From NCBI GenBank assembly GCA_025677605.1, contig GCA_025677605.1_4110.1: a DNA stretch of 64,000 nucleotides, one strand, 5' to 3'. Both the position numbers and the translations under genes were made by a program. Positions 25,744 to 64,000 of the stretch are shown piece after piece. Origin of the DNA: a phage. The notes beneath the pieces are model-generated. The model saw only the letters and a program-made list of their open reading frames with translations, was not told where the DNA came from and searched no databases. Position 1 is the first letter of the stretch. Each line of letters opens with the position of its first letter.

Positions 25744-25752
25744 ATTAATCTC

Positions 25753-26079: not shown

Positions 26080-26086
26080 TATCGCA

Positions 26087-26332: not shown

Positions 26333-26361
26333 AATCTGTACCCTATGATTAACGTTAGTGT

Positions 26362-26601: not shown

Positions 26602-26604
26602 GGT

Positions 26605-26946: not shown

Positions 26947-26948
26947 TT

Positions 26949-27170: not shown

Positions 27171-27382
27171 AGCTTTTCCTGTATAAGCTTCTTAAGTATT
27201 TCTATGTGTGAATTAACAGTTCTTTCTTGATGCTGTGTTCCTAAGAGTATCAGTACTATCATCTCTGAACGCAAAAGATTTTTTTCAAGTTCCCCTATAT
27301 CAGTTCTTGTATCAAGTACTAAAAATTTGTGATTATTCTTTCTGAATAGTTCTAAGTACTCTTGATTTGATATTGTCTTCAT
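27167..27382 (-). CDS. Family B small protein
   Basis: 71 aa; LLGTQHQERTV; ATGA coupling. Confidence 0.65.
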   Translation of the reverse strand: MKTISNQEYLELFRKNNHKFLVLDTRTDIGELEKNLLRSEMIVLILLGTQHQERTVNSHIEILKKLIQEKL

Positions 27383-27609
27383 AGTTTATCCCTGATGCCA
27401 TTTAAAAGTGCTCTAATATGCTCCTGTACGAATTTGTACTGACTGTCTGTTCCTAGAGTGAGTAACAATCTTAAATCTGAACTTTTGATATGATATTCTA
27501 AATCATTATTTGATTCTTGCCTCAGTTTCTGAAAGGATGAGAAGTTTGCTGCCATTAGTTCAATGTATTCTGCTGTTCCTAGGGGTTTGTGTATGTGCTG
27601 TCTGTGCAT
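27379..27609 (-). CDS. Family B small protein
   Basis: 76 aa; TLGTDSQYKFV. Confidence 0.65.
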   Translation of the reverse strand: MHRQHIHKPLGTAEYIELMAANFSSFQKLRQESNNDLEYHIKSSDLRLLLTLGTDSQYKFVQEHIRALLNGIRDKL

Positions 27610-27815
27610 TTTAATTGTATTACCCTTTTAAGTGTATTAATATAATCCACGATGATGTGTTCTTGATAGTTAGTTCCTATAGTAGCTAGAACATAGATTT
27701 CACTTATTAGAATATTTTTTTCATCCTGTGATAATTCTTCTGACCAGCTACGATGCAACTTTGGAATTAAACTACTTAATAGTTGGTTGTATTCAGTAGG
27801 TGAAATGATTTTCAT
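27579..27815 (-). CDS. Family B small protein
   Basis: 78 aa; TIGTNYQEHII. Confidence 0.65.
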   Translation of the reverse strand: MKIISPTEYNQLLSSLIPKLHRSWSEELSQDEKNILISEIYVLATIGTNYQEHIIVDYINTLKRVIQLKCTDSTYTNP

Positions 27816-28027
27816 TTACATCTTCTCAGTACTGATTCTTTAAGTTCATCGATGTAGTCCTCAACAAATTGTTCTTGTAGGTTTGTTCCGAGATGTAACA
27901 GTACTCTTAAATCTGCTCTAAGTACTTCTTTGTCATCTTCATCTATATCAGACAGTGATATGTTTAAGAATTTACTTGAATTCTCTATAAGTAATATTAC
28001 TTCATCACCTTCGCTTAAAATTTTCAT
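27812..28027 (-). CDS. Family B small protein
   Basis: 71 aa; HLGTNLQEQFV. Confidence 0.65.
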   Translation of the reverse strand: MKILSEGDEVILLIENSSKFLNISLSDIDEDDKEVLRADLRVLLHLGTNLQEQFVEDYIDELKESVLRRCK

Positions 28028-28239
28028 AATCTTTGTGTTTTCCTCGACAGTAGGTACAGGTAACGTTCAGTGCATTGTTCTTGATAGTTTGTTCCTAATA
28101 AATGAACTAATTGTTGTTCAGCTATAGAAAGCTGTTTATCTTCATAACAAGCGTATCGTTGTTTCCTATGGTATTCTTTATTGATAACATCAAGGATGAT
28201 AACACCGTATTCGTCATCTGTCAAGTGTTTCATGTGCAT
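28024..28239 (-). CDS. Family B small protein
   Basis: 71 aa; LLGTNYQEQCT. Confidence 0.65.
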   Translation of the reverse strand: MHMKHLTDDEYGVIILDVINKEYHRKQRYACYEDKQLSIAEQQLVHLLGTNYQEQCTERYLYLLSRKTQRL

Positions 28240-28471
28240 TTCTTTTTCTTATATGTTTAGTTAAAAGGTATATTAGTTTTCTTACGTACTCGTCTTGATA
28301 GTTAGTCCCTAATAGTGCAAGAAGTTTTGCTTCAACTAAAGCTAATTGTCGTTCTTCAAATGTGTGTTCCAGAATGTACTTGGGGTTTGATTTTTTAGAA
28401 ATTGCACTATTAGTCTTCATTATAATCTTATGATATTCATTGACTGTTAAGATTTTTATATATTTGGTCAT
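28214..28471 (-). CDS. Family B small protein
   Basis: 85 aa; LLGTNYQDEYV. Confidence 0.65.
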   Translation of the reverse strand: MTKYIKILTVNEYHKIIMKTNSAISKKSNPKYILEHTFEERQLALVEAKLLALLGTNYQDEYVRKLIYLLTKHIRKRNAHETLDR

Positions 28472-28691
28472 GTATCTTTTCCTGAATAGTCATTTTAAGA
28501 TATCTAAGAATCGATCGAACATAATACTCCTGTCTATCGGTTCCAAGAAAGTACAGGAGTTGTTGATATAATACTTCTGCACTCCTTGCAGCAGGGGTTT
28601 GATTTGGGTCTTTTGGAAGTTGATTTGTATGTTTTCTGGATTTAATTATTCTTTCTTTTATTTCATCGTCTGTTAAGTATATCATTTGCAT
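28437..28691 (-). CDS. Family B small protein
   Basis: Track ORF 28437..28727 trimmed to MQMIYLTDDE (compare MQMINLS in the next two paralogs); FLGTDRQEYYV. Confidence 0.6.
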   Translation of the reverse strand: MQMIYLTDDEIKERIIKSRKHTNQLPKDPNQTPAARSAEVLYQQLLYFLGTDRQEYYVRSILRYLKMTIQEKIHDQIYKNLNSQ

Positions 28692-28918
28692 TTTATGTTC
28701 CTCACATGAATTGTTTGGATTAAACATTCAATCCAAGATGTAACATATCTTGTTTGATATTGTGTGCCTAAGAGACTCTGCATTTTAAACTCTGCTTCAA
28801 GTTCATATCTCTTTTCTATCGTAAAGCTTAAATGACCATATTCTGCATCGTATCTTCTCAGTGATTCCCCAATTCTATCAAATCTTTCTGCTAAGTTGAT
28901 GTTATTCACAGTATTCAT
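28682..28918 (-). CDS. Family B small protein
   Basis: 78 aa; LLGTQYQTRYV. Confidence 0.65.
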   Translation of the reverse strand: MNTVNNINLAERFDRIGESLRRYDAEYGHLSFTIEKRYELEAEFKMQSLLGTQYQTRYVTSWIECLIQTIHVRNIKCK

Positions 28919-29178
28919 CGATCAGTACACCTCAGTGGTTGGGTCATTTGATAAAAGTACAGCTTACCTCTGATTTCCATTAACAACTCGGCTATGACGC
29001 GATTTACTTCTGTCTCTTGATAGTTTGTTCCTAAGAAGACACCCATCTTTAACTCACGATGCATAATCATCTTCTTACTGTGTTGAATTTCTTGGCTGTA
29101 ATAGATTGCATTACGTTTAGGTGAGATTTTTGCTAGTCGCTCGTTATATTCATCTTGACTTAAATTAATCATTTGCAT
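28915..29178 (-). CDS. Family B small protein
   Basis: 87 aa; FLGTNYQETEV. Confidence 0.65.
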   Translation of the reverse strand: MQMINLSQDEYNERLAKISPKRNAIYYSQEIQHSKKMIMHRELKMGVFLGTNYQETEVNRVIAELLMEIRGKLYFYQMTQPLRCTDR

Positions 29179-29393
29179 TTACTTTGGACCTCATTTTGAA
29201 GTGCATTAATGACCTTCAGTACAGCACTCGCTTGATAGTTTGTTCCTAAGACTGAAAGCATCTTGATCTCATTTACTACAATCCACTTATTTGATTGTTC
29301 AATAATGTGACTTTCATAAATGGCCTTGCGTAATGAATAAGTTTTTGCAAGACGTACATAATATTCATCTTTACTTAAATTAATCATTTGCAT
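29169..29393 (-). CDS. Family B small protein
   Basis: 74 aa; VLGTNYQASAV. Confidence 0.65.
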   Translation of the reverse strand: MQMINLSKDEYYVRLAKTYSLRKAIYESHIIEQSNKWIVVNEIKMLSVLGTNYQASAVLKVINALQNEVQSKCK

Positions 29394-29602
29394 TTACTTT
29401 TAACCTCTTTCTGGAGTGCATCAATCCATAGGTCTATATACGTTTGTTGATAGTTTGTGCCTAAGAGTGCCTCTACATAGAGTTCAGCTACCTTTGCGTG
29501 CTTTAGGTCAACAGGGATGCTCTTATCGCTTGATAACATTCTCCTTCTGCTGGTGCATGTTTTCAGAAGCCTGATGTATTCAACACCTTGTAATTTTCTC
29601 AT
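29384..29602 (-). CDS. Family B small protein
   Basis: 72 aa; LLGTNYQQTYI. Confidence 0.65.
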   Translation of the reverse strand: MRKLQGVEYIRLLKTCTSRRRMLSSDKSIPVDLKHAKVAELYVEALLGTNYQQTYIDLWIDALQKEVKSKCK

Positions 29603-29814
29603 TCTCTGGATATCACCTTGTTACGTAGACTTGCTAACCATGCGTCAGTATAGATGTTTTGATAGTTTGTCCCAATGAAGATAGATAGCTTCATTTCAGT
29701 TATTATAACACATTTGTCCACTTGTGCAATAGATTTGTTTAAAGAAATACTAGAAACTTTTGCTTGTATAGTTCGCAACAGCCTGTAATATTCATACCCA
29801 CTAAGGATTTTCAT
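29599..29814 (-). CDS. Family B small protein
   Basis: 71 aa; FIGTNYQNIYT. Confidence 0.65.
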   Translation of the reverse strand: MKILSGYEYYRLLRTIQAKVSSISLNKSIAQVDKCVIITEMKLSIFIGTNYQNIYTDAWLASLRNKVISRE

Positions 29815-30061
29815 TCTCTCGTCTCCAGACTTCCGTTCTTATATGTTGTTGATATGCTTCCAGATAGTTCTCTATTGCCTTAGAGATTGTTTGTGTATCG
29901 TCGCCCGTCATCAGTACAAGCATCTCTGCTTCACAGTGTATAAGTCTGCTAATATCATTAGTGAGTTTATCAGATACCGTATCATAGTGTTTGTGGATTA
30001 GTTTCTGAAATAGTTTAACGTACATAATGTGATTTATTCTGGATCGCATTGTCTTTTCCAT
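29801..30061 (-). CDS. Family B small protein (divergent)
   Basis: 86 aa; MTGDDTQTIS at the motif position. Confidence 0.55.
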   Translation of the reverse strand: MEKTMRSRINHIMYVKLFQKLIHKHYDTVSDKLTNDISRLIHCEAEMLVLMTGDDTQTISKAIENYLEAYQQHIRTEVWRRENENP

Positions 30062-30285
30062 TCTCTTTTGGCCTGTCGGGTTTTATACGCTACAAGGTTT
30101 CTTAGTGCATTGATATAACGATCAGTGAAGATATCTTGTTTATTAGTTCCAACGAATTTAAGAAGAAACACGTCACCATTAACTACATCATTCTCAGGGG
30201 AAGGATAAAGTTCATTGTTCTTGCGAAGGGTGTTTAGTAAAGAGAATAGGGCAGATTGATACTCAGTGCTTGATAATACTTTCAT
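30034..30285 (-). CDS. Family B small protein
   Basis: 83 aa; FVGTNKQDIFT. Confidence 0.65.
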   Translation of the reverse strand: MKVLSSTEYQSALFSLLNTLRKNNELYPSPENDVVNGDVFLLKFVGTNKQDIFTDRYINALRNLVAYKTRQAKREWKRQCDPE

Positions 30286-30509
30286 TAGTTCATTCCCTTT
30301 CTTTCTATATGTTTCATAAGAACATTAAGATACTCACCCACAAACCTATTCTGATACTGCGTCCCCATGAATTCAAACAGCCATACTTCAGCAACCATTT
30401 CTTCAATTTCATTCCAAGATAAGTACATCATAGTGAAGTAAATGTGGTTCTCTTTTTGAGATGCACTCCTTGAGCGAGCCTCGTATTCAAAGTTATTAAT
30501 GCAGTTCAT
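30285..30509 (-). CDS. Family B small protein
   Basis: 74 aa; FMGTQYQNRFV. Confidence 0.65.
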   Translation of the reverse strand: MNCINNFEYEARSRSASQKENHIYFTMMYLSWNEIEEMVAEVWLFEFMGTQYQNRFVGEYLNVLMKHIERKGMN

Positions 30510-30718
30510 AGTTTACTCCTGATGTATTTCTCAAGAGCTATTAGATACTCTTGGACATAAGATTTCTGGTGGTCAGTTCCTAAGAAGACACCCAGAAGTA
30601 ATTCTTTTTCCATAACTTTTGATAAGTATACATCATCCCTGTCTGCATATATCAGCAAGATTTCAATCTGCTTAGAATTGTAACGTTTCCTATATTGCTC
30701 TGGTGTTAATATAATCAT
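30506..30718 (-). CDS. Family B small protein
   Basis: 70 aa; FLGTDHQKSYV. Confidence 0.65.
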   Translation of the reverse strand: MIILTPEQYRKRYNSKQIEILLIYADRDDVYLSKVMEKELLLGVFLGTDHQKSYVQEYLIALEKYIRSKL

Positions 30719-30924
30719 AGTTTACTCTTTATATCTTCAATTAAAAATCCAATACAATCATTGACATACTCTTCCTGAAAGTTAGTCCCCAGTACAGCCA
30801 ACATGCGATACTCTGCTGACCTTATCGCTCTTTCAGTTTTTGGTAAGTTACGTGGTATAGTTACCATCAATTCAAGATACTCCACCATACGACTCAATGC
30901 TTGTCTTTGTGTTATAGTTTTCAT
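30715..30924 (-). CDS. Family B small protein
   Basis: 69 aa; VLGTNFQEEYV. Confidence 0.65.
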   Translation of the reverse strand: MKTITQRQALSRMVEYLELMVTIPRNLPKTERAIRSAEYRMLAVLGTNFQEEYVNDCIGFLIEDIKSKL

Positions 30925-31121
30925 AATTTACACCTCGCTCGTATGTCAGCTTTCAAAGATTCCAAATAGTGCGTTACCCACACTTCCTGATAGTTGGTTC
31001 CCATCGTAATCAACAGGTACAACTCAACTCTTTCTAAGTGCACATTGCTTTGGTAAATCCTTGCCGTGTTTTTACGTAGTATATGATGATATTCATCTTG
31101 GGTTAATGTACGCATTTTCAT
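30921..31121 (-). CDS. Family B small protein
   Basis: 66 aa; TMGTNYQEVWV. Confidence 0.65.
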   Translation of the reverse strand: MKMRTLTQDEYHHILRKNTARIYQSNVHLERVELYLLITMGTNYQEVWVTHYLESLKADIRARCKL

Positions 31122-31315
31122 AGTTTACCATTTATCTCTAAACATAACTCTTTTACATATAGTTTAACATATTCATTTTGTAAGTTAGTTCCTAAGAATA
31201 GTTCCATAACTAATTCACGTTTATAGGCATTACCACGTTTATGAGACTTATACATTATCATAGCCATGTTATTGATAAGTCTTTCGTGATGCTCTTCTTG
31301 TGTTAAAATACGCAT
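31118..31315 (-). CDS. Family B small protein (first gene of operon)
   Basis: 65 aa; FLGTNLQNEYV. Confidence 0.65.
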   Translation of the reverse strand: MRILTQEEHHERLINNMAMIMYKSHKRGNAYKRELVMELFLGTNLQNEYVKLYVKELCLEINGKL

Positions 31316-53776: not shown

Positions 53777-53974
53777 TTACTTCCTATATATAAGCATTAA
53801 GATATAGTAGTACTGATTGTACTGTACATTCTCTAGAACAGGAGAAGGGTCTATTGCTATATTAGTACATTTATTAAATTCATATCGAGTCATTGGTAGA
53901 GGGATTAGAGCGTTAATCCATACTTGTTCATTCTCTTTGAGTTTACTTATATAGAATTCTTTATGGTCATTCAT
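53777..53974 (-). CDS. Family C tiny protein
   Basis: Track ORF 53777..54085 trimmed to MNDHKEFY (abuts the upstream stop); ends LMLIYRK. Confidence 0.55.
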   Translation of the reverse strand: MNDHKEFYISKLKENEQVWINALIPLPMTRYEFNKCTNIAIDPSPVLENVQYNQYYYILMLIYRK

Positions 53975-53975
53975 A

Positions 53976-54167
53976 TTAGTGTCTGTATATAAGTAATAGT
54001 AAGAATACGTACTGCACCTGTTCATCTTTAGTATTGAGTACTGTACGTATTGCGTCCTTAAACAAGAATATAGAACTTGGGTCATGGGAATTTAAAGGGA
54101 TTACGGGGACGGCATCTTTGTAGTTCTCTTTAACAAATTGTTTATAGTATTCTTTATAATTATCCAT
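53976..54167 (-). CDS. Family C tiny protein
   Basis: 63 aa; MDNYKEYY...LLLLIYRH. Confidence 0.6.
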   Translation of the reverse strand: MDNYKEYYKQFVKENYKDAVPVIPLNSHDPSSIFLFKDAIRTVLNTKDEQVQYVFLLLLIYRH

Positions 54168-54360
54168 AGATATATACTAGCAACATTAGGTTAGAGTATA
54201 GTGCTTTAGTGTCATCTTGTTCTAGAGCTTCAATTGAGTTCGTTGTAGCTTTCCTAAAGCCCATTTTTGCGTATGCACTTTTTGGATTAACGGGGGCGGC
54301 GGCTTCGCACCAGATTCTTTCGGTGCTTGATAGTTTACTCATATAGAATTCTTTATACAT
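54160..54360 (-). CDS. Family C tiny protein
   Basis: 66 aa; MYKEFY...LMLLVYIYG. Confidence 0.6.
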   Translation of the reverse strand: MYKEFYMSKLSSTERIWCEAAAPVNPKSAYAKMGFRKATTNSIEALEQDDTKALYSNLMLLVYIYG

Positions 54361-54361
54361 A

Positions 54362-54544
54362 TTAGTACCTGAATATTAGCATTGTTATGTAGTACAGCAT
54401 ATATGGATTGTCATCGTATATTAGGGTGTACTTAGTACATTGTTGGAACATTATCTTTGCGTGATCTTTTATTCCTATTGGTTCTGTTGGTACAAGGTGT
54501 TGGAGATGCATTGGGAGATGATCTTTATAAAATTCTTTATACAT
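54362..54544 (-). CDS. Family C tiny protein
   Basis: 60 aa; MYKEFY...ITMLIFRY. Confidence 0.6.
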   Translation of the reverse strand: MYKEFYKDHLPMHLQHLVPTEPIGIKDHAKIMFQQCTKYTLIYDDNPYMLYYITMLIFRY

Positions 54545-54552
54545 ATTAGTCC

Positions 54553-54741
54553 TTAGTACTGGAACGCGAGATACAGAGTGTGGTACAGTTGCACTTGAGA
54601 ATTGTTTTCATTAAGTACTTGTTCAGTACATGTGCGGAAGTAATCAGCTTCGTATATACAGTTAATATCGCGAGGTTCATCTTCTAATAGATTGCCTTGT
54701 AGAAACTTTGGTAGTTCTTTTATGTAGTATTCTTTATGCAT
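54553..54741 (-). CDS. Family C tiny protein
   Basis: 62 aa; MHKEYY...TLYLAFQY. Confidence 0.6.
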   Translation of the reverse strand: MHKEYYIKELPKFLQGNLLEDEPRDINCIYEADYFRTCTEQVLNENNSQVQLYHTLYLAFQY

Positions 54742-54750
54742 ATGATTTCC

Positions 54751-54939
54751 TTAGTACACGAATGCGAGGTACAGGGTGTGGTACAGTACTCGATGATAGC
54801 TATCATAATCTTGTATACATGCTTTAGTGCACATAGTAAAGTACTTTTTATCGTTTTGTGCATTGATACCGCGAGGTTTATCTAATAGATTAGTTATGAG
54901 GTACATTGGGAAATATTTTGTGTAGTATTCTTTGTGCAT
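54751..54939 (-). CDS. Family C tiny protein
   Basis: 62 aa; MHKEYY...TLYLAFVY. Confidence 0.6.
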   Translation of the reverse strand: MHKEYYTKYFPMYLITNLLDKPRGINAQNDKKYFTMCTKACIQDYDSYHRVLYHTLYLAFVY

Positions 54940-54940
54940 A

Positions 54941-55123
54941 TTAGTACCTGTATATAAGTGTTAGTACATTGTACAAGTTATAGATATCATCTTCATTTAT
55001 TGCAGATTCTGTTTGATATCGGTAGAATATAGTTTGGCTTTTATCTTTGAAATCTACAGGTTTTTGGGGAATAAGTTTTTGGAGATCTATTGTAAGTTTA
55101 CTTACGTAGTATTCTTTATACAT
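54941..55123 (-). CDS. Family C tiny protein
   Basis: Track ORF 54941..55186 trimmed to MYKEYYVSKL; ends VLTLIYRY. Confidence 0.55.
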   Translation of the reverse strand: MYKEYYVSKLTIDLQKLIPQKPVDFKDKSQTIFYRYQTESAINEDDIYNLYNVLTLIYRY

Positions 55124-55787
55124 AGTTTGTAATATAAGTAATGAGGTGATGAATTTTCTTATCAGTACTGATAAGTTCCTGTACATGTTTTGTTAGTTTG
55201 TACGCGTTTTTGTACAGTACAGGATTATCGATTACAGTACTGTACATGAATAGATCTTCTTCCTGTAGTTCTTTGTGTTCTAGTTCTTTGAGGAATTCTA
55301 CAATTGATTTAGTTTCTTCTGTACGTTGCTGTTGGAAGAAATGCATGTTATCGTGTATTTCTTCTGAACCCATACTGTATATGCCACCCATTTGGAATTG
55401 TGCTGTATTGACATCGTGGGAGGTGTTACAATTCCCGAAGAAGTATGTATTCCCGAAGTATAGCATTAAAGTGCACGGGGTATTATCCAACTGCATATGG
55501 ATGATGAAGGATGCGTTCTTTAGTACCTTCATGCTCGTATTAGTACTCAATACTTTTAAATCAGTATTATAGATATTCATATAATGAACAGCTATATTAT
55601 TTTTCTTCATGTACAATTCAAGGTTCTTTGATACGTTAACTCCATTTGTACTGGTTTTTTTACTTTTCTTTAGGTTCTTTAGTACATTAGGGTGATAAGT
55701 ATATGCATTAGTGGTAGATTCAGCCTGGATTGATTGCAGGTACTTGAAGTGCTGTAGGTATCGTTTACTTTGTGGATTGAGTTTCAT
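55116..55787 (-). CDS. Family A-like outlier within the family C array
   Basis: 223 aa; LQEEDLFMYSTVIDN at the motif position. Confidence 0.55.
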   Translation of the reverse strand: MKLNPQSKRYLQHFKYLQSIQAESTTNAYTYHPNVLKNLKKSKKTSTNGVNVSKNLELYMKKNNIAVHYMNIYNTDLKVLSTNTSMKVLKNASFIIHMQLDNTPCTLMLYFGNTYFFGNCNTSHDVNTAQFQMGGIYSMGSEEIHDNMHFFQQQRTEETKSIVEFLKELEHKELQEEDLFMYSTVIDNPVLYKNAYKLTKHVQELISTDKKIHHLITYITNYV

Positions 55788-55815
55788 TTTAGTCTCCTTA
55801 AATTGCTTATACTGC

Positions 55816-55995
55816 TTATACTGTTACAAGCGAGATTATTTCTCTGTATGGGTTATTTTTTGTCAGGACGTGATGAATGCAGCTATTGAGATTAATAGTT
55901 TTAGTACTTTTTGTTCCTATGTTGTAGTACTTCACGAAGGTGTCGTACATGAAACGATCCTTAGTACTGAGATTATCGGTGTAGTACTCTAGCAT
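55816..55995 (-). CDS. Family C tiny protein (59 aa, not in ORF track)
   Basis: Hand translation MLEYYTDNLSTKDRFMYDTF...NPYREIISLVTV. Confidence 0.5.
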   Translation of the reverse strand: MLEYYTDNLSTKDRFMYDTFVKYYNIGTKSTKTINLNSCIHHVLTKNNPYREIISLVTV

Positions 55996-56005
55996 AGTTT
56001 ATTCC

Positions 56006-56185
56006 TTATATAGAGATTAGTTTCAGTACTTCTCTGTACGTGTACTTTTCGTTTTGTGCTTCTACTGTACATGATAGCAGGTATCGTTTTTTATCTCTTT
56101 TGTTCCCGACTGTGTAGTACCTTTGGAATTGATTATAGATGTATCTATCTTTGTTCTGGAGTTTATAGATATAGAATTCTTGCAT
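56006..56185 (-). CDS. Family C tiny protein (59 aa, not in ORF track)
   Basis: Hand translation MQEFYIYKLQNKDRYIYNQF...KYTYREVLKLISI. Confidence 0.5.
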   Translation of the reverse strand: MQEFYIYKLQNKDRYIYNQFQRYYTVGNKRDKKRYLLSCTVEAQNEKYTYREVLKLISI

Positions 56186-56193
56186 AGTGTACC

Positions 56194-56373
56194 TTAGATA
56201 GAAATTAGTTTCAGTACTTCATTATATGTGAACATTTCGTCCTGTGCCAATTTAGTACAATTCAGGAGTAATTTTCTTTGTTTTCTTTGCGAACTACAAT
56301 GATAGCTCATTGAGAAGTAATTGAAGCCGTATCTATCTTCTGGGTAAATTACGCTTAGGTAGTATTCTAGCAT
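56194..56373 (-). CDS. Family C tiny protein (59 aa, not in ORF track)
   Basis: Hand translation MLEYYLSVIYPEDRYGFNYF...MFTYNEVLKLISI. Confidence 0.5.
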   Translation of the reverse strand: MLEYYLSVIYPEDRYGFNYFSMSYHCSSQRKQRKLLLNCTKLAQDEMFTYNEVLKLISI

Positions 56374-56381
56374 TGTATTCT

Positions 56382-56567
56382 CTACATTTCAATAAGTTTA
56401 AGTACTGCTCTGTACGTGTACTTAGTTGTTAGTACTTCTTTTATAGCAGTACAGAAGTAATGTTGTTTGTCTCTTATACTGCCGCGTTTGTAGTACCATA
56501 CATGGGAGTTGTGGCTGTACTTGTCTCTGTCGGATAGTTGTTGGTAATAGTAGCTTATATGATTCAT
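56382..56567 (-). CDS. Family C tiny protein
   Basis: 61 aa; ...KYTYRAVLKLIEM. Confidence 0.6.
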   Translation of the reverse strand: MNHISYYYQQLSDRDKYSHNSHVWYYKRGSIRDKQHYFCTAIKEVLTTKYTYRAVLKLIEM

Positions 56568-56776
56568 TGTAATGTAATTAGCCTTACTATATTAAAGTAC
56601 TCGGTCCCTGTTGCACCTTGTAGAATATTACGCACGACATGTTTGTGGTGCAGGATGATTGCTGAAGGTGCGGTTCTTTTAAGTTTTTTAAAAGTACTGA
56701 ATTCTTGTTTAAGTATGAACTGTACATCTTTAGGGAGAATATCTATGTAGTACTGATGAATGTTTGTAATTTTCAT
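56564..56776 (-). CDS. Family C tiny protein (divergent)
   Basis: 70 aa; MKITNIHQYY...NIVRLITLQ. Confidence 0.55.
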   Translation of the reverse strand: MKITNIHQYYIDILPKDVQFILKQEFSTFKKLKRTAPSAIILHHKHVVRNILQGATGTEYFNIVRLITLQ

Positions 56777-56787
56777 ATAGTACCTTT

Positions 56788-56979
56788 TTAGAACTTAAAG
56801 ATGAGGTACATGATAGATAGGTACTTAGTTGAAGTAAATGGTTGTTCTATTGCATAACGTGTCTCCAACCTGAAATCGTAATTATAAAAGGGACTATTCT
56901 TTCTCATAGGTTCTTGAGGGAATGAGTCCCTGTATTGTTCGTGTAGTTTACTACAGTAGAAATCTTTATGATTATTCAT
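56788..56979 (-). CDS. Family C tiny protein
   Basis: 63 aa; MNNHKDFY...IMYLIFKF. Confidence 0.6.
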   Translation of the reverse strand: MNNHKDFYCSKLHEQYRDSFPQEPMRKNSPFYNYDFRLETRYAIEQPFTSTKYLSIMYLIFKF

Positions 56980-57181
56980 AGAAGTATATTAGTCCGATTA
57001 AACTTGAGTACTGCATATTTTTGTTATTGCATTCAATAGCTTCTAGAGTACTACGTATACAATTATTAAAGCAATTCCTTGTGTTGGGTGTGTCTATACT
57101 TACAGGTGGTACACTCCTTAGAAACATTTGTTCTTCGTTGCTGAGGTATTTGGTGTAGAATTCTTTATGTTCAGTATTCAT
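56972..57181 (-). CDS. Family C tiny protein
   Basis: 69 aa; MNTEHKEFY...LIGLIYFYE. Confidence 0.6.
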   Translation of the reverse strand: MNTEHKEFYTKYLSNEEQMFLRSVPPVSIDTPNTRNCFNNCIRSTLEAIECNNKNMQYSSLIGLIYFYE

Positions 57182-57182
57182 A

Positions 57183-57383
57183 TTAGTACTCCAATAGTAG
57201 TGTTAAGATGAAATAGTACTGCATACTTTCGTTACCTTCTATTGCATTCCAGATGAGGTTATTCCTGTTTGAGTTCAGGAGTCCTGGTATGCGTTTAGCA
57301 TTTTTCAGTACTGTTTTTTGGTTCTTCATTGCATCTTGTAGCCCAGGGTGCAATGCATTGATGTAGTACGGGTTAATGTTCAT
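57183..57383 (-). CDS. Family C tiny protein
   Basis: 66 aa; MNINPYY...ILTLLLEY. Confidence 0.6.
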   Translation of the reverse strand: MNINPYYINALHPGLQDAMKNQKTVLKNAKRIPGLLNSNRNNLIWNAIEGNESMQYYFILTLLLEY

Positions 57384-57607
57384 ATAGCCACTAGTACTAA
57401 GATGTTTAAAAATTGTTTACGGGTATCCCCTAATAGTGTATTGTGTACAATGCTCACAGTAAGGGTATTCAGTGCACTACCAAGCATAAGGTTACACCCT
57501 GTGCTCTTATGATTTTTTAGTTCAATTAGCCACGATTGGTCAGAGAGAACCTTTGCGTACTCTAGTTCATTTAGTTCATTGATGTAGTACTTTAGAGCAT
57601 ATGGCAT
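57380..57607 (-). CDS. Family C tiny protein (first gene of operon)
   Basis: 75 aa; MPYALKYY...NILVLVAI; AAGGAG SD. Confidence 0.6.
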   Translation of the reverse strand: MPYALKYYINELNELEYAKVLSDQSWLIELKNHKSTGCNLMLGSALNTLTVSIVHNTLLGDTRKQFLNILVLVAI

Positions 57608-57632: not shown

Positions 57633-57661
57633 ATAGTACATCAGTACTGAAAGGGTGTCAA
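57633..57661 (-). promoter_or_regulatory. sigma70-type promoter of the family C operon
   Basis: -35 TTGACA 57656..57661; 17 bp; -10 TACTAT 57633..57638. Confidence 0.6.
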
Positions 57662-57673: not shown

Positions 57674-57709
57674 TTGATTAAATATAGTATAATGAATAAA
57701 GGAGGAATT
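57674..57709 (+). promoter_or_regulatory. Conserved cassette leader (TATAAT box without -35, plus SD)
   Basis: TTGATTAAATATAGTATAATGAATAAAGGAGGAATT; TATAAT 57688..57693; repeated 5 times in front of the beta-propeller genes. Confidence 0.5.
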
Positions 57710-58606
57710 ATGTTACCTTTTGTTAGAATGTTTAAGTACGGGAATGTAGGTCCATTACCTGGCCCAAATGGTGGAGTACGAACACCATTTACTACAACAC
57801 CCGTACCTTCAGCACGAAATAACTTTGGTTATACGTATGATGCGGAAAGTAATATTGCTTATATATTTGGTGGTATACAGAATGCGGTGCAGACGGATAA
57901 TCAGTTATGGAGTTTTAATTTAACTACAAGAACGTGGTCACAATTAGCCAATGCACCTGTATCTACATTTGGTAGTGCGTTATGTGCTTATCAGGGAAAA
58001 ATATATTTGTTTGGTGGTTCAGGTAATAGTAGTAATAATTTTTATGTATATAATATAAGTACAAATACATGGATTCTGAACACTAACAGTATTGGGAAGC
58101 CTAGTCAACTGGCGTATAGTAAGATGATTACTGCTGGGGATAAGATATATTTGTGGGGTTCGCCTACTAATAATTCGTTATACAGTTATACTCCAAGTAC
58201 TAATACATGGTCATCATTAGGTACAAGTGATGGAACAAATAACAATGGAGGTGGTGATATGTGTACGGATGGTACTTACATATATATTACTGGTCAAGGT
58301 ACTAGTACTGCACAAAAATATCATATACAAAGTGCGGTGTGGTCTAACATAGCACCAGTTGGTGGTAATAACCCTAGTAAAATATGTTACAGTACATATG
58401 ATAAAAATATATATGCAGTGTCGTATGGTGCATTAAATTTATTGAGATACGATGCAGAAGAAGACATATGGATTCCCTTAGCGGTTAATACTACTTTGAG
58501 TAGTAGTACTGGTGCGTTATTTGGTTCTAAGAATAGTGCTGAGATATTTTATGTACTTGGTTTTGACAATGGCACTCGTGTTAATACGCAGTATGTTTTT
58601 AAATAA
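57710..58606 (+). CDS. Kelch-repeat beta-propeller protein with conserved MLPFVRM N-terminus
   Basis: Track ORF trimmed to MLPFVRMFKYGN (AAAGGAGG SD). 5-6 Kelch-like units, e.g. IYIFGG..LWSFNLTTRTW, KIYLFGG..YVYNISTNTW, KIYLWG..YSYTPSTNTW. Confidence 0.75.
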   Translation: MLPFVRMFKYGNVGPLPGPNGGVRTPFTTTPVPSARNNFGYTYDAESNIAYIFGGIQNAVQTDNQLWSFNLTTRTWSQLANAPVSTFGSALCAYQGKIYLFGGSGNSSNNFYVYNISTNTWILNTNSIGKPSQLAYSKMITAGDKIYLWGSPTNNSLYSYTPSTNTWSSLGTSDGTNNNGGGDMCTDGTYIYITGQGTSTAQKYHIQSAVWSNIAPVGGNNPSKICYSTYDKNIYAVSYGALNLLRYDAEEDIWIPLAVNTTLSSSTGALFGSKNSAEIFYVLGFDNGTRVNTQYVFK

Positions 58607-58618
58607 TTTGGAGGAATT

Positions 58619-59761
58619 ATGTTACCTTTTGTTAGAATGTTAGAGTACGGGAATATTGCACCAGAACCAAAACCTCTATTTAAAAATAGATTACAAGCAA
58701 ATTATAATACTCGTTTTTATTTGCATGTTAATGGTGACTTGTACTGGTATGGTTCATCTTCATTTGGACAAGGTGGTAATGGTTCATTACAATCATCCAC
58801 CGTATGGACCCGTGTGAATAATAATATTGAACGTTACTGGGGTGGTGTTCTTGGTTCCATTGCCATTAAGAATGATGGAACTATTTGGTTCACAGGTGCT
58901 AGTATAGTAATGCCACAAATCGGAACAAATACAAATGGGGTTTGGATTGATGTAACCCAGTACTTCACTGATTTTGGTGTCAGTGCTGATGATATTGATG
59001 GTATTGCTGTTGGGCAGAATTTGCGTGTATTTTTAAAAAATGGAAAATGGTTCTACTGTGGTGCTGGCGAAGGTGGTGTATTTGGTAACGCGTCAACAGC
59101 TAATGTCACATCGTTCAGATACAGCACTATAGAAAATGTTAAAAGTTATGGCTGTTCTTTGCTCAGTACTGGGTTAGTACTTGATGATGGCTCCTATTGG
59201 TATGCAGGAAATACTGTTGCTCCTGGTAGTACAAAAACATCAAATATATTAAGTTTTACAAAAGACAATACGATCACCAATGCTATACAAGCTGTAAATA
59301 CATACCGTACTTCATATATATTTCTTAATGATGGTTCAGTGAAGGTTGCTTCACCAAATGCATATGGTCAAGCTGGTGTAGGTACAGTATCAGCAGTACC
59401 AATGAGTACATTAATTCCCAATTTATCATTCCAAGGTGAAATAGAGTTGGTGGGTGGTTTATCCAACAACGAAGGGAATGGATGTGTTGTTAAAAATAAT
59501 AATAAGTTATATACTTGTGGTCGAAATACCTATGGTGCATGTGGTGTTAATCAAACATCCGAAAATATACTAACTTTCACCGAAATGGTTCTTGATGCAT
59601 TAGAAGGAAGACGAATTTCAGGCTTCGTAATTGATAATTTCTATTCAATGATAATTGATGAAAATAACAATTTGTATATGAGTGGTTTACCTGAACTTGG
59701 AAATGTTCCAGCCGTTAGAGTACCAACCAGAGTTCCTGATTCACTTCTACCGTGGAAATAA
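58619..59761 (+). CDS. RCC1-like repeat beta-propeller protein with MLPFVRM N-terminus
   Basis: 380 aa; GGAGG SD. Repeats such as LYWYGSSSFGQGGNG, WFYCGAGEGGVFGN, SPNAYGQAGVG, LYTCGRNTYGACGVN. Confidence 0.7.
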   Translation: MLPFVRMLEYGNIAPEPKPLFKNRLQANYNTRFYLHVNGDLYWYGSSSFGQGGNGSLQSSTVWTRVNNNIERYWGGVLGSIAIKNDGTIWFTGASIVMPQIGTNTNGVWIDVTQYFTDFGVSADDIDGIAVGQNLRVFLKNGKWFYCGAGEGGVFGNASTANVTSFRYSTIENVKSYGCSLLSTGLVLDDGSYWYAGNTVAPGSTKTSNILSFTKDNTITNAIQAVNTYRTSYIFLNDGSVKVASPNAYGQAGVGTVSAVPMSTLIPNLSFQGEIELVGGLSNNEGNGCVVKNNNKLYTCGRNTYGACGVNQTSENILTFTEMVLDALEGRRISGFVIDNFYSMIIDENNNLYMSGLPELGNVPAVRVPTRVPDSLLPWK

Positions 59762-59768
59762 TATAATA

Positions 59769-59797
59769 GCCAGTACTCTGTACTGGCTTTTCTTATT
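59769..59797 (+). terminator. Rho-independent terminator
   Basis: GCCAGTAC-TCT-GTACTGGC followed by TTTTCTTATTT. Confidence 0.75.
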
Positions 59798-59833
59798 TGT
59801 ATTAAATATAGTATAATGAATAAAGGAGGAATT
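59798..59833 (+). promoter_or_regulatory. Conserved cassette leader
   Basis: TATAAT 59812..59817; AAAGGAGG SD. Confidence 0.5.
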
Positions 59834-60943
59834 ATGTTACCTTTTGTTAGAATGTTAGAGTATGGGAATATTGTACCCGGTCCTAAAAATATAATTAAAG
59901 TTGGTGCTTCTACACAAGGTCAATTCTTATTGACTGATTCACATGATTTATATTACATAGGTAGAAATCAAGGTGGTGAATCTGGAAATGGTAATAACAA
60001 CACGGTATCTTCATGGATATTAGTAAGTTCAGATGTTTCTAATTTTTTCGTGGGTGGTCGTACACTTGTTATTATTAAAAATGATAATACGATATGGACA
60101 TCGGGTGAAACGTACTGGTTCTCATCTTCTACAACTACTTCTTACAGTACTATATTAGTTGAAAGGACTAATTGGTTTACCAATGCTATACCAGTGAGTG
60201 AAATTGCTAATATTGTATGTACAAATGGTTTAATATTTGTACTTAGCACTAGTTCAGTACTCTATGGTGCAGGAGATAATGGATATCGTGGTTCTTTAGG
60301 TATTGGCTCATCATCGATTTACACATTAACTCAATGTGCTACTAACGTGCGTAAAGTAATGACTAATGCAAATGATAGTATGTATATTACATTAGATAAT
60401 AAGCTATATAGTTCTGGATGGAATAGCAGTGGGCAGCATGGTACAGGGGACCAAACACAAATTAACACTTGGGGATTACGTAGTTCTGGTGTAATCGATG
60501 CAGCGATTGGTGGTAATGCATTTAATTACTATAATGGTACATCATATTTCGTATGTGGTCAAACTCCAAACTTTCTTAGTTCAGGTACGACTACATTCCG
60601 TGCAGTTCCTGTAAGTACTTTGCCTAATAGTTCTCCGTTGTTTATGACGAATTCACCTGCATTAAATACTGCTACACAAATGGTAATTACTAGTACATAT
60701 CAGAAGGGTGTTGGGGCGAACCGTGGTTTGGGATTAAACAATTCTCAAACTGGTGCTATATATAGTGCTACAAATTTACAATTACCCGTTGAAGTTAGTG
60801 AGATTAGGGATGTTCTTTTTAGTGATGGTTTGACTTCAATATTAACCAAAGATGGAGATGTATATAGTACTGGAACGTATTACGCCATTCCTGGTGCAAG
60901 CGAGGATGTTGCAGTCTTTACTAAAATTGATTTACCAAAATAA
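59834..60943 (+). CDS. RCC1-like repeat beta-propeller protein with MLPFVRM N-terminus
   Basis: Track ORF trimmed to MLPFVRMLEYGN. Repeats LYYIGRNQGGESGNG, LYGAGDNGYRGSLGIG, LYSSGWNSSGQHGTGD. Confidence 0.7.
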   Translation: MLPFVRMLEYGNIVPGPKNIIKVGASTQGQFLLTDSHDLYYIGRNQGGESGNGNNNTVSSWILVSSDVSNFFVGGRTLVIIKNDNTIWTSGETYWFSSSTTTSYSTILVERTNWFTNAIPVSEIANIVCTNGLIFVLSTSSVLYGAGDNGYRGSLGIGSSSIYTLTQCATNVRKVMTNANDSMYITLDNKLYSSGWNSSGQHGTGDQTQINTWGLRSSGVIDAAIGGNAFNYYNGTSYFVCGQTPNFLSSGTTTFRAVPVSTLPNSSPLFMTNSPALNTATQMVITSTYQKGVGANRGLGLNNSQTGAIYSATNLQLPVEVSEIRDVLFSDGLTSILTKDGDVYSTGTYYAIPGASEDVAVFTKIDLPK

Positions 60944-60949
60944 CATAAT

Positions 60950-60977
60950 GCCAGTACTTGATACTGGCTTTCTTATT
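60950..60977 (+). terminator. Rho-independent terminator
   Basis: GCCAGTA-CTTGA-TACTGGC followed by TTTCTTATTT. Confidence 0.75.
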
Positions 60978-61014
60978 TGTATTAAATATAGTATAATGAA
61001 TAAAGGAGGAATAT
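60978..61014 (+). promoter_or_regulatory. Conserved cassette leader
   Basis: TATAAT 60992..60997; AAAGGAGG SD. Confidence 0.5.
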
Positions 61015-62194
61015 ATGTTACCTTTTGTTAGATTGTTTGATTATGGGAATGTTGCCCCTATTAAAGATACTGTTGTTAAAATTAATAGTGATGAAAATTC
61101 AATAAGCGTATTATACAGTGACGGGTCATTATATATGCGTGGACGGAAACCAATCAGCAAAAATGGGAGTTACTGGTTCATCTTTTTTAGATAGATGGGT
61201 TTTATGTCCTTATAGTGTTGATGATTTCTGGAGTTCTTTATATTGTACTATAATTAGAACAAAACAAGGGGAATTGTACTATAGTGGAACTAACTCAGTT
61301 TTTGGTATATCATCTTCTGTTTCAACATGGACTCGTTGTGAATCATATTTTGGATCTATCTCGGCGAGTTCTATAAAAGATATAAAAATAACATCAACAA
61401 CCAGTACTAACAATTCTATGCTAATACTCACAAGTGACGGTCAGTTATATGGTATAGGCATGAATGGTGCAAGTGAATTGGGTACAGCAACTGCACCAAT
61501 TACATCTCCACTCTTAATTGACACTAGTGTAACTGCAATTGCATCTAGCGAAATGAGCAGAAACTTTCACTATATAAAAGATGGTATATATTATCGTTGT
61601 GGTGAGAATACTTTTTATCAATTAGGGACAGGTGATAATAATCCAATTACGACTTTTACTGCATTGAATCTTGCAAGTTCTCAAGTAATTGCAGTACAAG
61701 CTACACGATGGGTAACACGTTTGATTGTTCAAAGTAGTACATCTGCTTTGTCTTTAATGGCGGCTGGTTGGAACACACAGTTGACTATAGGTGGTTCTGA
61801 AAATACTGGTATAATAAGGTCATCATTTACTACAAATCCCTATACCGATATAACAGCAAATTCATTCGATAAACTTTCACCAGTATCCTATGTTAATGCA
61901 ATAAAATCCAGTACTAACATTATTAATACGAATGGTAAGGGATATAATTCTAATGGTGCTGGTTTAGGCCGCAACGCATTCTCTGGGAATTATGGTTCAA
62001 TATTACCAATAGAATTCTTTGATGATAGTGTTGACTTATCACATGTTGAGTGGTTTGGTACGATTGGTAATGGTTCAGTATCGGTAGTTAGTATAGGTGA
62101 GGATTTATACTGGACTGGAAACCCTGGGTATTTTACTGAACAAGGTGAGACTGGATATATATATAAATTCAAAAAGTGCATTCCTTTTAGATAA
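61015..62194 (+). pseudogene. Frameshifted RCC1-like beta-propeller paralog
   Basis: MLPFVRLFDYGN...LYSDGSLYMRG is in frame 1 (stop at 61192..61194). The homologous continuation GNQSAKMGVTG... is in the +1 frame (track ORF 61118..62194). One extra nucleotide near 61144. Confidence 0.6.
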
Positions 62195-62202
62195 TCACAA
62201 TA

Positions 62203-62229
62203 CCAGTACTTGATACTGGCTTTTCTTTT
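62203..62229 (+). terminator. Rho-independent terminator
   Basis: CCAGTA-CTTGA-TACTGG followed by CTTTTCTTTTTT. Confidence 0.7.
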
Positions 62230-62265
62230 TTGATTAAATATAGTATAATGAATAAAGGAGGAAAT
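62230..62265 (+). promoter_or_regulatory. Conserved cassette leader
   Basis: TATAAT 62244..62249; AAAGGAGG SD. Confidence 0.5.
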
Positions 62266-63456
62266 ATGTTACCTTTTGTTAGAATGTTTGATTACGGGAA
62301 TATAACACCAGTCCCTATTCAAATTAAGAAAATATCACCAACTGATTTAGATGTTGTCGTTCTTTATACGGATGGTCAACTATACGCACGTGGAAATAAT
62401 AGTTTTGGGAAGTTTGGTAGAGGAAATAGTAATGCAGTAAAGTCATGGACCTTAATTAGAGAAAATGTTAAAGATTTCTGGGTGTCACAAGGAACTTTGT
62501 TAGTACAAGATAATGACTTAAATTATTTTTATTGTGGATACGGTGATCATGTTGGTTTACCAACTAGTACTACAACATTTTTAAGTTATAACCAATATAT
62601 TGAAAATTTATACACACAAAGTTCAAGTACTTCAATTAAACAGATGTATGCAGGCACTACGTGGTTTACTTTCTTAATGGATAATAATACAATATGGAGT
62701 ACTGGTTGGAGTGGGGCTAGACAATTCGCTGATGGTACTGGAAAAACTCAACAAATAACAGATGGATCATTTGTAAAAGCTGTCACGCCTAATGTTGATA
62801 TTGCACAAATACAGTCAACAAATAACTGTGTAATGTTTTTTGATACACAAAATAATTTATATATTGGTGGTGGTACGTCAGGTATAAGTACCAGTACCAC
62901 ATGGACACCATTTAATGAATATACTTTATATAAACCAAGTACAACATACACAAAAACGTTACAATACACTGGATGCTCAAGTGGTGCAGTCAGTGCTTTG
63001 GTTGAGAATCCAAGTACTGGTGCACGTCAGTTTCTAGTTGGTGGTTTAGCGAGTAATGGTGCATGGGGTAACAATACCACAACCAGTTCGGCACTTGCTG
63101 TATTAGGGAGCAATAGTACGACATTACCAACTGGAACTTTGTATTCAATTCATACAGGATACCCAACACAATCTAGTATACTAGTTACGAGTACTGGTGT
63201 ATATGCAACTGGTTTAAATGCGAGTAGTTATGCTGGTTCGTTGGGTGTTGGTTCTAATGTTACTATTGGTAGATTTACTATATGTCCAATGCCAGCAGAA
63301 ATATCATATTCTATGTATGATAAAATAAAAATATATCGCGGTTCGTATCGTACTTTTCTAACTGCTGATATGAAAAATATATATTCAACCGGAACGTATG
63401 ATGATGGTGGTCCTAGTACAAATAGATATGTTCTGGATACACCTAGACAATTGTAA
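62266..63456 (+). CDS. RCC1-like repeat beta-propeller protein with MLPFVRM N-terminus
   Basis: Track ORF trimmed to MLPFVRMFDYGN. Repeats LYARGNNSFGKFGRGN, IWSTGWSGARQFADGTG, GGLASNGAWGN. Confidence 0.65.
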   Translation: MLPFVRMFDYGNITPVPIQIKKISPTDLDVVVLYTDGQLYARGNNSFGKFGRGNSNAVKSWTLIRENVKDFWVSQGTLLVQDNDLNYFYCGYGDHVGLPTSTTTFLSYNQYIENLYTQSSSTSIKQMYAGTTWFTFLMDNNTIWSTGWSGARQFADGTGKTQQITDGSFVKAVTPNVDIAQIQSTNNCVMFFDTQNNLYIGGGTSGISTSTTWTPFNEYTLYKPSTTYTKTLQYTGCSSGAVSALVENPSTGARQFLVGGLASNGAWGNNTTTSSALAVLGSNSTTLPTGTLYSIHTGYPTQSSILVTSTGVYATGLNASSYAGSLGVGSNVTIGRFTICPMPAEISYSMYDKIKIYRGSYRTFLTADMKNIYSTGTYDDGGPSTNRYVLDTPRQL

Positions 63457-63463
63457 TAATTTC

Positions 63464-63491
63464 GCCAGTACTTGATACTGGCTTTTCTTTT
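63464..63491 (+). terminator. Rho-independent terminator
   Basis: GCCAGTA-CTTGA-TACTGGC followed by TTTTCTTTTTT. Confidence 0.75.
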
Positions 63492-63527
63492 TTGATTAAA
63501 TATAGTATAATGAATAAAGGAGGAAAT
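63492..63527 (+). promoter_or_regulatory. Conserved cassette leader
   Basis: TATAAT 63506..63511; AAAGGAGG SD. Confidence 0.5.
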
Positions 63528-64000
63528 ATGTTACCTTTTGTAAGAATGTTGGATTATGGAAATAAAGTTTTACCATATATTCCCAATTTTGTTAAATTAG
63601 TTACACCATCGTGTGGTTATTCATATACATGTACAATGATGCTTGATAAAAATGGTTCAATATGGGCTATAGGTTTTCAGAATGGTGGAATTTTTGGTTT
63701 AGGTCATACTAATCCAGTAACTGAATGGACAAAAATATATAGCAATGTTAAAGATTTTTGGTGCAGTACAATGAACGCTTTTTGTCTAATACGCACAAAT
63801 GATGATAGATTCTTTTATAGTGGTTTAGATAAATGGCTGGGTAATAATACAACCAATAATATAACAACATTCACAGAATGTACAAGCTATTTTACACAAT
63901 TTGGAATTTCAAGAATTAAAGATATATACGTGGGTTATGATTATGCTTTGATTTTAGGTACAGATAATAGTTTATATTTGTTAGGTGATAATACTGGTTA
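63528..64000 (+). CDS. Beta-propeller paralog with MLPFVRM N-terminus (partial; runs off the window)
   Basis: Hand translation MLPFVRMLDYGNKVLPYIPNF...IWAIGFQNGGIFGLGHTN... is open to the window end; not in the track because no stop is reached. Confidence 0.65.
   Translation, partial: MLPFVRMLDYGNKVLPYIPNFVKLVTPSCGYSYTCTMMLDKNGSIWAIGFQNGGIFGLGHTNPVTEWTKIYSNVKDFWCSTMNAFCLIRTNDDRFFYSGLDKWLGNNTTNNITTFTECTSYFTQFGISRIKDIYVGYDYALILGTDNSLYLLGDNTG

Follow-up and report, generated by a model that had tools for sequence, protein, structure and literature searches.

The last part of a 64,000-nucleotide (nt) stretch of phage DNA (GenBank assembly GCA_025677605.1, contig GCA_025677605.1_4110.1; hereafter the window) carries tandem plus-strand genes whose products share a 12-residue N-terminus, the tag, and then diverge into Kelch-type or RCC1-like beta-propellers. 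Among related phages, the tag strongly predicts incorporation into the virion, irrespective of the fold that it precedes, and it is retained in mature virions. In the reading that we favour, and to which we give about an even chance, the tag is a retained docking peptide that places interchangeable binding modules on the virion, probably on its outside.

Six tagged propeller genes

The Asteriusvirus-type jumbo coliphages 121Q, PBECO4, phAPEC6, G17, A4 and WPEC3 match the window at 84-98% identity, and judged by these matches the window is DNA of an Asteriusvirus-type jumbo coliphage of the 121Q/phAPEC6/A4 group. Across the region of the tagged genes, which we refer to as cassettes, these relatives give only mosaic coverage (40-60%). 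This region is the sole plus-strand block of the window, the first 57.6 kb of which are filled nearly completely by small minus-strand open reading frames (ORFs). It opens within a 100-nt divergent intergenic region, together with a consensus sigma-70 promoter of the leftward genes. The window holds the first six cassettes, i.e. the 5' end of a hypervariable tandem array that runs on past the window end. Relatives carry 17-18 (WPEC3), 12 (G17), 8 (A4) and about 13-15 cassettes (phAPEC6, in which the array straddles the arbitrary start of the record).

All six genes open with ATGTTACCTTTTGT, corresponding to MLPFVR[ML][LF][EDK]YGN (6 matches, 0 expected; Table 1). An earlier note on this DNA had recognised the shared N-terminus and counted seven such genes; the N-terminus stands, and the number is six, as the seventh arose from a frameshift that splits gene 4 into two ORFs. 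The same note assigned the first gene to the Kelch type and the others to RCC1-like propellers, and Pfam searches together with AlphaFold2 (AF2) models of the first two products are in line with this. The product of gene 1 exceeded the Pfam cut-off for Kelch_1, Kelch_6, Kelch_4, Kelch_3, Kelch_2 and PF24681, gave an all-beta AF2 model with a predicted local distance difference test (pLDDT) score of 85.7 and is 98.7% identical to a 'kelch-like protein' of A4. The product of gene 2 is 98.2% identical to phAPEC6 gp001 and 121Q gp247 and shares 100% identity with a protein encoded by a 351,638-bp contig that was deposited as E. coli. Its AF2 model (pLDDT 89.8) matched UVR8 in a Foldseek search with template modelling (TM) scores of 0.77-0.79 and E = 1e-21, and also matched the RCC1-like domains of RCC1, HERC1/2 and RPGR. 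RCC1_2 scores were above the Pfam cut-off for genes 2 and 3, at it for gene 5 and below it for gene 6, and PF25390 scored well under its own 150-bit cut-off in the RCC1-like genes. In composition, the cargo behind the tag is near-neutral (isoelectric point 5.1-8.6) and non-basic, with a low charge density and a high content of G, S, T and N.

Gene 4 contains a frameshift near 61140 (CGTGGACGGAAAC) and a stop codon at 61192-61194 that directly follows a T6 run (TTTTTTAGATAG). The match to this cassette keeps its length of 1,180 nt in 11 other phage records. The WPEC3 copy is split into the same two ORFs, and in Turkey5 a compensating 1-nt deletion at the T-run leads to one ORF again. From this pattern, gene 4 is probably a conserved pseudogene, and recoding at TTT-TTT-AGA-TAG may occur.

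Tagged proteins of related phages occur in virions and keep the tag

That the propeller proteins are attached to virions had been proposed from the window alone, and published mass spectrometry of whole virions supports this for orthologous array members. In phAPEC6, electrospray ionisation tandem mass spectrometry detected gp003, gp005, gp006, gp007, gp009, gp010, gp549 and gp551 (PMC7247149, Table 1). All eight proteins are array members, which corresponds to 8 of the 11 annotated full-length members compared to 62 of 551 proteins overall (P = 2e-6). In Pectobacterium phage CBB, CBB_536, 537, 548, 549, 551, 552 and 553 were detected (PMC5259590, Table 4), i.e. 7 of 9 tagged proteins compared to 55 of 554 overall (P = 2e-6). 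Furthermore, the tagged protein gp001 of GAP32 was reported as a virion protein. It is this detection of tagged proteins in virions of all three phages that makes the tag a predictor of virion incorporation.

The peptide list of CBB (supplementary file 6) contains the tryptic peptide LFEYANVIIPPNYK, which represents residues 7-20 of CBB_536 and spans an L-F-E site, as well as YANVIVEYATK, which represents residues 10-20 of CBB_548. Since these virion peptides include tag residues, the tag is kept on the mature protein.

The tag is conserved as a peptide on unrelated folds

Throughout the clade, the tag follows the consensus M-[LI]-P-F-x-R-x-x-x-Y-G-N. The CBB variant, MLPF[SPAT]R..[YF][GA]N, heads the Kelch proteins CBB_550, 552 and 554, two of the Kelch proteins having a looser form, the Laminin_G_3 (LamG) proteins CBB_548 and 551, and four phrog_6011 proteins of about 220 residues each (CBB_536, 537, 549 and 553). 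In GAP32, the tag heads gp001, which is RCC1-like, and gp002, and in Erwinia phage Hallingskeid one Kelch, eight RCC1-like and one ConA-like protein. Serratia phage BF has the full tag on a 221-residue ConA-like protein and a shortened form, MLPFPIIS, without YGN, on RCC1-like proteins and one glycine-rich protein (L014, 4184-11724). The glycine-rich protein comprises 265 residues and matches Gly_rich_2 weakly; among the virion proteins that mass spectrometry identified in related Erwinia phages, one paper names a 'PE-PGRS family protein', which may be the same glycine-rich cargo. A further protein, P0057 (MFPISIISQYGN), is intermediate between the full tag and the MLPFPIIS form. Two uncultured jumbo contigs carry the tag on LamG proteins and on a 667-residue fusion of RCC1 and Kelch repeats, in which one tag may thus carry two cargo domains. 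The fusion is encoded on the minus strand of a 355-kb uncultured viral contig (L016, 6413-8416), and its domains were read by eye from the repeats.

A search with a profile built from the 30 N-terminal residues, run on 1.84 billion representative proteins, revealed 40 matches, 38 of them real, and all 38 lie at the extreme N-terminus (residue 1, in one case residue 6). In IMG/VR, a scan with a degenerate DNA form of the tag led only to Rak2-like jumbo contigs, apart from four matches (L011, L012, L015 and L024) that lie off gene starts; an occurrence in unrelated phages was rejected, these four being due to chance.

A codon alignment across genera showed synonymous variation at P3, F4, R6, Y10, G11 and N12. 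This indicates that selection acts on the peptide, and we rejected the possibility that the tag is conserved merely as DNA or RNA. In both AF2 models, pLDDT is below 50 in the tag region (residues 1-17 of the gene 2 product and 1-20 of the gene 1 product) and the propellers are predicted with confidence. The models thus predict a disordered tag that is not part of the fold. Together with its presence on at least four cargo folds in other genera, this agrees with the earlier view of a constant short N-terminus as a separate module. A role as a 'velcro' strand that closes the propeller was rejected, as the tag is disordered in both models and also present on non-propeller folds. Since the most conserved segment of these proteins is an N-terminal extension with predicted disorder, the tag has the hallmarks of a partner-binding short linear motif.

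A parallel situation exists in the Vequintavirinae. In Escherichia phage A5-4, three tandem RCC1-like genes open with MLEMLNLG or MLEMMNLG (L025, 9007-12505), and in Cronobacter phage PBES 02 a ConA-like 'virion structural protein' opens with MNEMLMLG (L030, 6995-7645). Judging from these gene starts, this subfamily has a second, lineage-specific N-terminus on the same two cargo families, as one would predict for an N-terminus that serves as an address for the virion of the respective lineage.

Cassettes are exchanged at the tag and at the terminators

We analysed breakpoints between the window and the arrays of WPEC3, G17, A4 and Turkey5. The closest relative is A4, with 98-99% identity across shared cassettes. 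Between the Kelch gene and gene 2, A4 has one cassette (A4_244) that the window lacks. Upstream of its ATG, gene 2 corresponds to the A4 junction between the Kelch gene and A4_244, and from about codon 17 on it corresponds to A4_243. The two sides of gene 2 thus match different A4 neighbours, which indicates a crossover within the shared Shine-Dalgarno (SD) sequence and tag, a segment of about 50 nt. In slot 4, A4 contains an unrelated cassette. Homology extends through the end of gene 3, the terminator, the junction block, the SD sequence and the tag, decays after about codon 13 and is back exactly at the next terminator hairpin. The gene 4 cassette is present in 12 other phages and stands beside different upstream neighbours in WPEC3. 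The comparison of cassette order and content that had been suggested as a check on shuffling thus revealed one loss and one replacement relative to A4, with variation at the junctions, and the breakpoints at the tag and the terminator hairpin support the idea that repeated junctions drive the shuffling.

Junctions and promoters

A 31-nt block, ATTAAATATAGTATAATGAATAAAGGAGGAA, occurs in five exact copies (0 expected), the first of which has no hairpin in front of it because the array starts there. The hairpin GCCAGTACTTGATACTGGC is present in four copies with 0-3 mismatches (0.02 expected) and folding energies of −6.5 to −13.3 kcal/mol. Each copy is followed by a T-tract, so that four sites in the window combine the GC-rich hairpin and T-tract of an intrinsic terminator. 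An alignment of 27 hairpin copies gave a mostly invariant 7-bp consensus stem (−9.9 kcal/mol) with one compensatory pair, and G17 has terminators annotated by ARNOLD at the equivalent positions between its 12 cassettes. Of the five nearly identical junctions of about 65 bp described in the earlier note, the 31-nt block is thus exact in all five, and the hairpin precedes four genes only. Among 41 tagged starts in four arrays, 29 have the junction of hairpin, T-tract, TTAAATATAnTATAA and SD sequence, and 12 have the SD sequence alone. Outside the arrays, including the 50-kb structural region of phAPEC6, the junction block was not found. The stem variants of the terminators at 59768, 60950, 62202 and 63464 contain the palindrome CAGTACTG; this octamer is also present in the hairpin-less first junction (ATCAGTACTGAAAGG, 57640-57650), and likewise in WPEC3 and G17.

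The TATAAT box of the junction had been described as lacking a credible −35 element and as a possible late-type promoter. The former was confirmed, as a sigma-70 scan makes no call at the junctions because the −35 position falls in the T-tract. Across 27 copies, TTAAATATAnTATAA is the conserved motif; three of them have TATAAC or TATAAA, with another base in place of the last T of TATAAT. The second proposal did not hold. In phAPEC6, the genes for the major capsid protein, the scaffold, gp232 and gp238 have the T4-type late promoter octamer TATAAATA 40-50 nt upstream, in line with a published proposal for the late promoter of CBB and GAP32, and other structural genes have ATAAATA. The octamer was not found on either strand of the window, compared to 13.3 +/- 3.4 copies expected from shuffled sequences and seven copies in the 50-kb structural region of phAPEC6, which has the same GC content as the window. 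This suggests that late promoters are strongly counter-selected in the early/accessory region of the window. The junction as a canonical late promoter was therefore rejected, TTAAATATAnTATAA being present there instead of TATAAATA. Since there is no TATAAATA in the window and no −35 element at the junction, the putative junction promoter is, by its motifs, neither canonically early nor canonically late.

Table 1 Features of the cassette array and its upstream flank. Positions refer to the window.
Feature	Position	Strand	Basis
Sigma-70-type promoter (TTGACA-17-TACTAT) of the leftward small-gene array	57633..57661	−	promoter scan
Junction block 1, TTAAATATAGTATAAT and AAAGGAGG SD, no upstream terminator hairpin	57677..57707	+	exact repeat
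Cassette 1: tag (57710-57745), then Kelch beta-propeller, 298 residues	57710..58606	+	Pfam, AF2
Short SD-only junction before gene 2, TTTGGAGGAATT, 12 nt	58607..58618	+	comparison with A4
Cassette 2: tag, then seven-bladed RCC1-like propeller, 380 residues	58619..59761	+	Pfam, AF2, Foldseek
Terminator hairpin AGCCAGTACTCTGTACTGGCT, then T-tract	59768..59788	+	motif scan, folding (−13.3 kcal/mol)
Junction block 2	59801..59831	+	exact repeat
Cassette 3: tag, then RCC1-like propeller, 369 residues	59834..60943	+	ORF, Pfam
Terminator hairpin, then T-tract	60950..60968	+	motif scan, folding
Junction block 3	60981..61011	+	exact repeat
Cassette 4: tag, then RCC1-like propeller broken by a frameshift	61015..62194	+	ORFs 61015-61194 and 61118-62194
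Terminator hairpin with one mismatch, then T-tract; A4 homology restarts exactly here	62202..62220	+	motif scan, folding, comparison with A4
Junction block 4	62233..62263	+	exact repeat
Cassette 5: tag, then RCC1-like propeller, 396 residues	62266..63456	+	ORF, Pfam, tag match
Terminator hairpin, then T-tract	63464..63482	+	motif scan, folding
Junction block 5	63495..63525	+	exact repeat
Cassette 6: tag, then RCC1-like propeller that leaves the window end	63528..64000	+	Pfam, tag match

A docking tag on interchangeable modules and its alternatives

Each cassette consists, in this order, of an optional −10-like box, a strong SD sequence, the tag (M-L-P-F-x-R-(M/L/I)-x-x-Y-G-N), a short Pro-rich linker, the cargo and an intrinsic terminator, the cargo being a globular beta-rich domain, in the window a Kelch or RCC1-like propeller. 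In the arrangement that we propose, the tag would act as a disordered, fold-independent address that stays on the mature protein and docks it onto a putative component that every virion of this phage clade possesses. A variety of cargo proteins could then be loaded at once, with few copies of each. Portable homology for cassette deletion, duplication and swaps between phages would come from the near-identical junctions and tag codons. We infer that the tag itself mediates incorporation, and the modules would bind ligands or receptors. Their most likely site would be external, on the hair-like fibres or at other decoration sites of capsid or tail, where the modules could serve as interchangeable ligand-binding heads. 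The fibres, which both phAPEC6 and CBB virions bear, are an obvious candidate docking site. We prefer an external anchor because the tag is retained, the cargo is near-neutral and rich in G, S, T and N, and its folds are ConA-like/LamG, Kelch, RCC1-like and Gly_rich_2; fold types and retained tag together lean towards an external, binding role.

Several points weigh against this reading. Twelve residues are short for a stable anchor, and the cargo is predicted to be monomeric and globular, whereas receptor-binding proteins typically form trimeric fibres. The array is located apart from the structural module, adjoins the early region and has no late promoter TATAAATA. Tag peptides are few and none includes residues 1-6, so the first six residues may be trimmed. 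GAP32 has tagged virion proteins, yet no hairs were reported for it (PMC5259590), and the inner body of phAPEC6 and 121Q could house tagged proteins (PMC7247149).

The last point leads to an alternative modelled on T4, in which the tag would direct the proteins to the prohead scaffolding core. Packaged together with the DNA, possibly within or close to the inner body, they would be ejected into the host, where defence proteins would be bound and neutralised by the diversified propellers and lectin-like domains. The internal proteins of T4 and other T-even phages (IPI, IPII, IPIII and Alt) have in common only a capsid-targeting sequence (CTS) of 10-19 N-terminal residues, which targets them to the core and is removed by gp21 at (L/I)-x-E (PMC3012670, PMC9026906). 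The design is alike, as a short address, of about 10 residues in T4, heads unrelated, non-essential and hypervariable virion proteins, and close relatives differ at the locus (PMC3012670, PMC9026906). This phage group also combines a T4-type head with a gp21-family protease (phAPEC6 gp227c matches Peptidase_S77 with E = 1e-20) and, in phAPEC6 and 121Q, with an inner body. Many low-copy paralogues occur together in virions, which is compatible with promiscuous loading, the genes are not part of the late structural module, and T4 packages and ejects even large CTS fusions. However, the tag has no sequence resemblance to the CTS and no conserved (L/I)-x-E site, as position 9 can be E, D, K, Q, N or R, and it is kept in mature CBB virions even across an L-F-E that fits the T4 protease motif. 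With a retained tag and a variable position 9, propeptide removal, a defining feature of a CTS, is lacking. While T4 internal proteins are small and basic, the array cargo consists of neutral beta-propellers or lectin-like domains of 24-45 kDa with folds that are typical of ligand-binding surface modules, and a 40-kDa propeller would have to unfold to traverse the tail tube. We consider this explanation unlikely, although it is the strongest of the alternatives; as a T4 CTS with Asp at position 10 targets its protein without being processed, internal targeting without processing is conceivable.

The shared N-terminus might also have no targeting role and be kept by junction duplication and gene conversion or for translation initiation or folding, in which case the cargo domains would confer virion association. 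Within one genome, the tag codons are indeed near-identical as DNA and contiguous with the conserved SD block, and recombination occurs at the tag. Across genera, however, the peptide is conserved despite synonymous changes and wholly different upstream DNA, and the cassettes of CBB and Hallingskeid are operon-like, without a junction. The tag is found on four unrelated folds and is the sole feature common to the set detected in virions, and homologous cargo in the Vequintavirinae has a different, lineage-specific N-terminus. This makes the explanation improbable in our view. Still less credence is due to the idea, implied by the annotation and suggested in the phAPEC6 paper (PMC7247149), that the RCC1-like proteins condense DNA, by organising the packaged genome or building the inner body. 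It draws on the RCC1 fold and on the existence of an inner body in phAPEC6 and 121Q, but the only link to DNA is the naming after eukaryotic RCC1. The composition of the proteins, near-neutral and of low charge density, lends no support, and their peptide coverage of 3-17% is low compared to other virion proteins of about 40 kDa. Moreover, Kelch and lectin-like cargo stands under the same tag and at the same locus, near-identical phages differ in gene content and one member is probably a conserved pseudogene. We therefore regard a role in DNA condensation as very improbable.

Returning to the external docking tag, close counterparts are the multi-tailspike sets of RaK2 and K64-1, which likewise combine a constant, retained N-terminal anchor with variable C-terminal modules, tandem paralogues and exchange between relatives. 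The RaK2 tailspikes also have short shared N-terminal motifs of their own (LIQPKGSVSKE..., MSLSNLSS...). In contrast to these sets, the array anchor comprises only 12 residues, the cargo is predicted to be a monomeric propeller instead of a trimeric beta-helix or fibre, and the genes lie outside the tail module and have no late promoters. RaK2 has none of these cargo families, and its tailspikes lack the tag, for which we found no match in the 50-kb RaK2 tail-spike region. A common anchor with the RaK2 tailspikes was rejected, as the spikes have other N-termini.

It may be speculated, more tentatively and as something that we think rather less likely than the docking tag as such, that Rak2-like jumbo phages, and in parallel the Vequintavirinae with their different tag, use a retained address to load a stochastic, fast-shuffled repertoire of lectin-like and propeller domains onto a generic virion site such as the hair tips. 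The resulting mix from particle to particle would be a form of bet-hedging in adsorption or decoration.

Relation to published arrays and implications

The arrays annotated as 'RCC1' or 'DNA condensation protein' in 121Q, PBECO4 and phAPEC6 represent the same gene family at the same locus as the array of the window. Multiple copies of these paralogues and their detection in virions have already been published (PMC5259590, PMC7247149), and variation of the RCC1-type array between close relatives has been noted (PMC13070987). In the literature that we searched, we found no description of the shared tag, the non-RCC1 folds, the retention of the tag, its predictive value for virion association, the junctions, the shuffling at breakpoint level or the parallel in the Vequintavirinae. 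The database labels 'DNA condensation protein' and 'regulator of chromosome condensation' rest on fold similarity alone, and on the present evidence these proteins can be placed, with Kelch, ConA-like and glycine-rich proteins, in a single class of address-tagged virion cargo. If the tag proves sufficient, it would offer a 12-residue handle to display or package foreign proteins in jumbo phages, a bait for the docking protein and a way to learn what the hair-like fibres or the inner body in phAPEC6, CBB and 121Q consist of and do. The cassette junctions furthermore reveal, breakpoint by breakpoint, how jumbo phages gain, lose and swap accessory virion genes.

Neighbouring genes

Downstream of the array, at a distance of a few kb, G17 (L005, 33013-33528) and A4 (L026, 15841-16059 and 19114-19551) carry a homologue of the endonuclease V gene (denV). 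In T4, denV adjoins ipII and ipIII. By this analogy, it is possible that the position of denV near the array is a trace of locus ancestry shared with the T4 internal-protein genes.

Upstream of the array, about 17 tandem ORFs of 59-81 residues adjoin the cassettes on the opposite strand (53777-57607, minus strand). They form at least two subfamilies, M(Y/H)KE(F/Y)Y... and M(L/Q)E(Y/F)Y...Y(R/N)EVLKLISI, and the same layout of a small minus-strand ORF array beside the cassettes is present in WPEC3, G17 and phAPEC6. A second tandem paralogue family with 21 members of 65-87 residues occupies 24973-31315 on the minus strand, and several smaller families of ORFs with 110-180 residues are scattered across 10.9-26.9 kb of the window. 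Hua et al. 2017 reportedly described tandem duplications in 121Q, and the small-ORF paralogue families of the window probably correspond to these.

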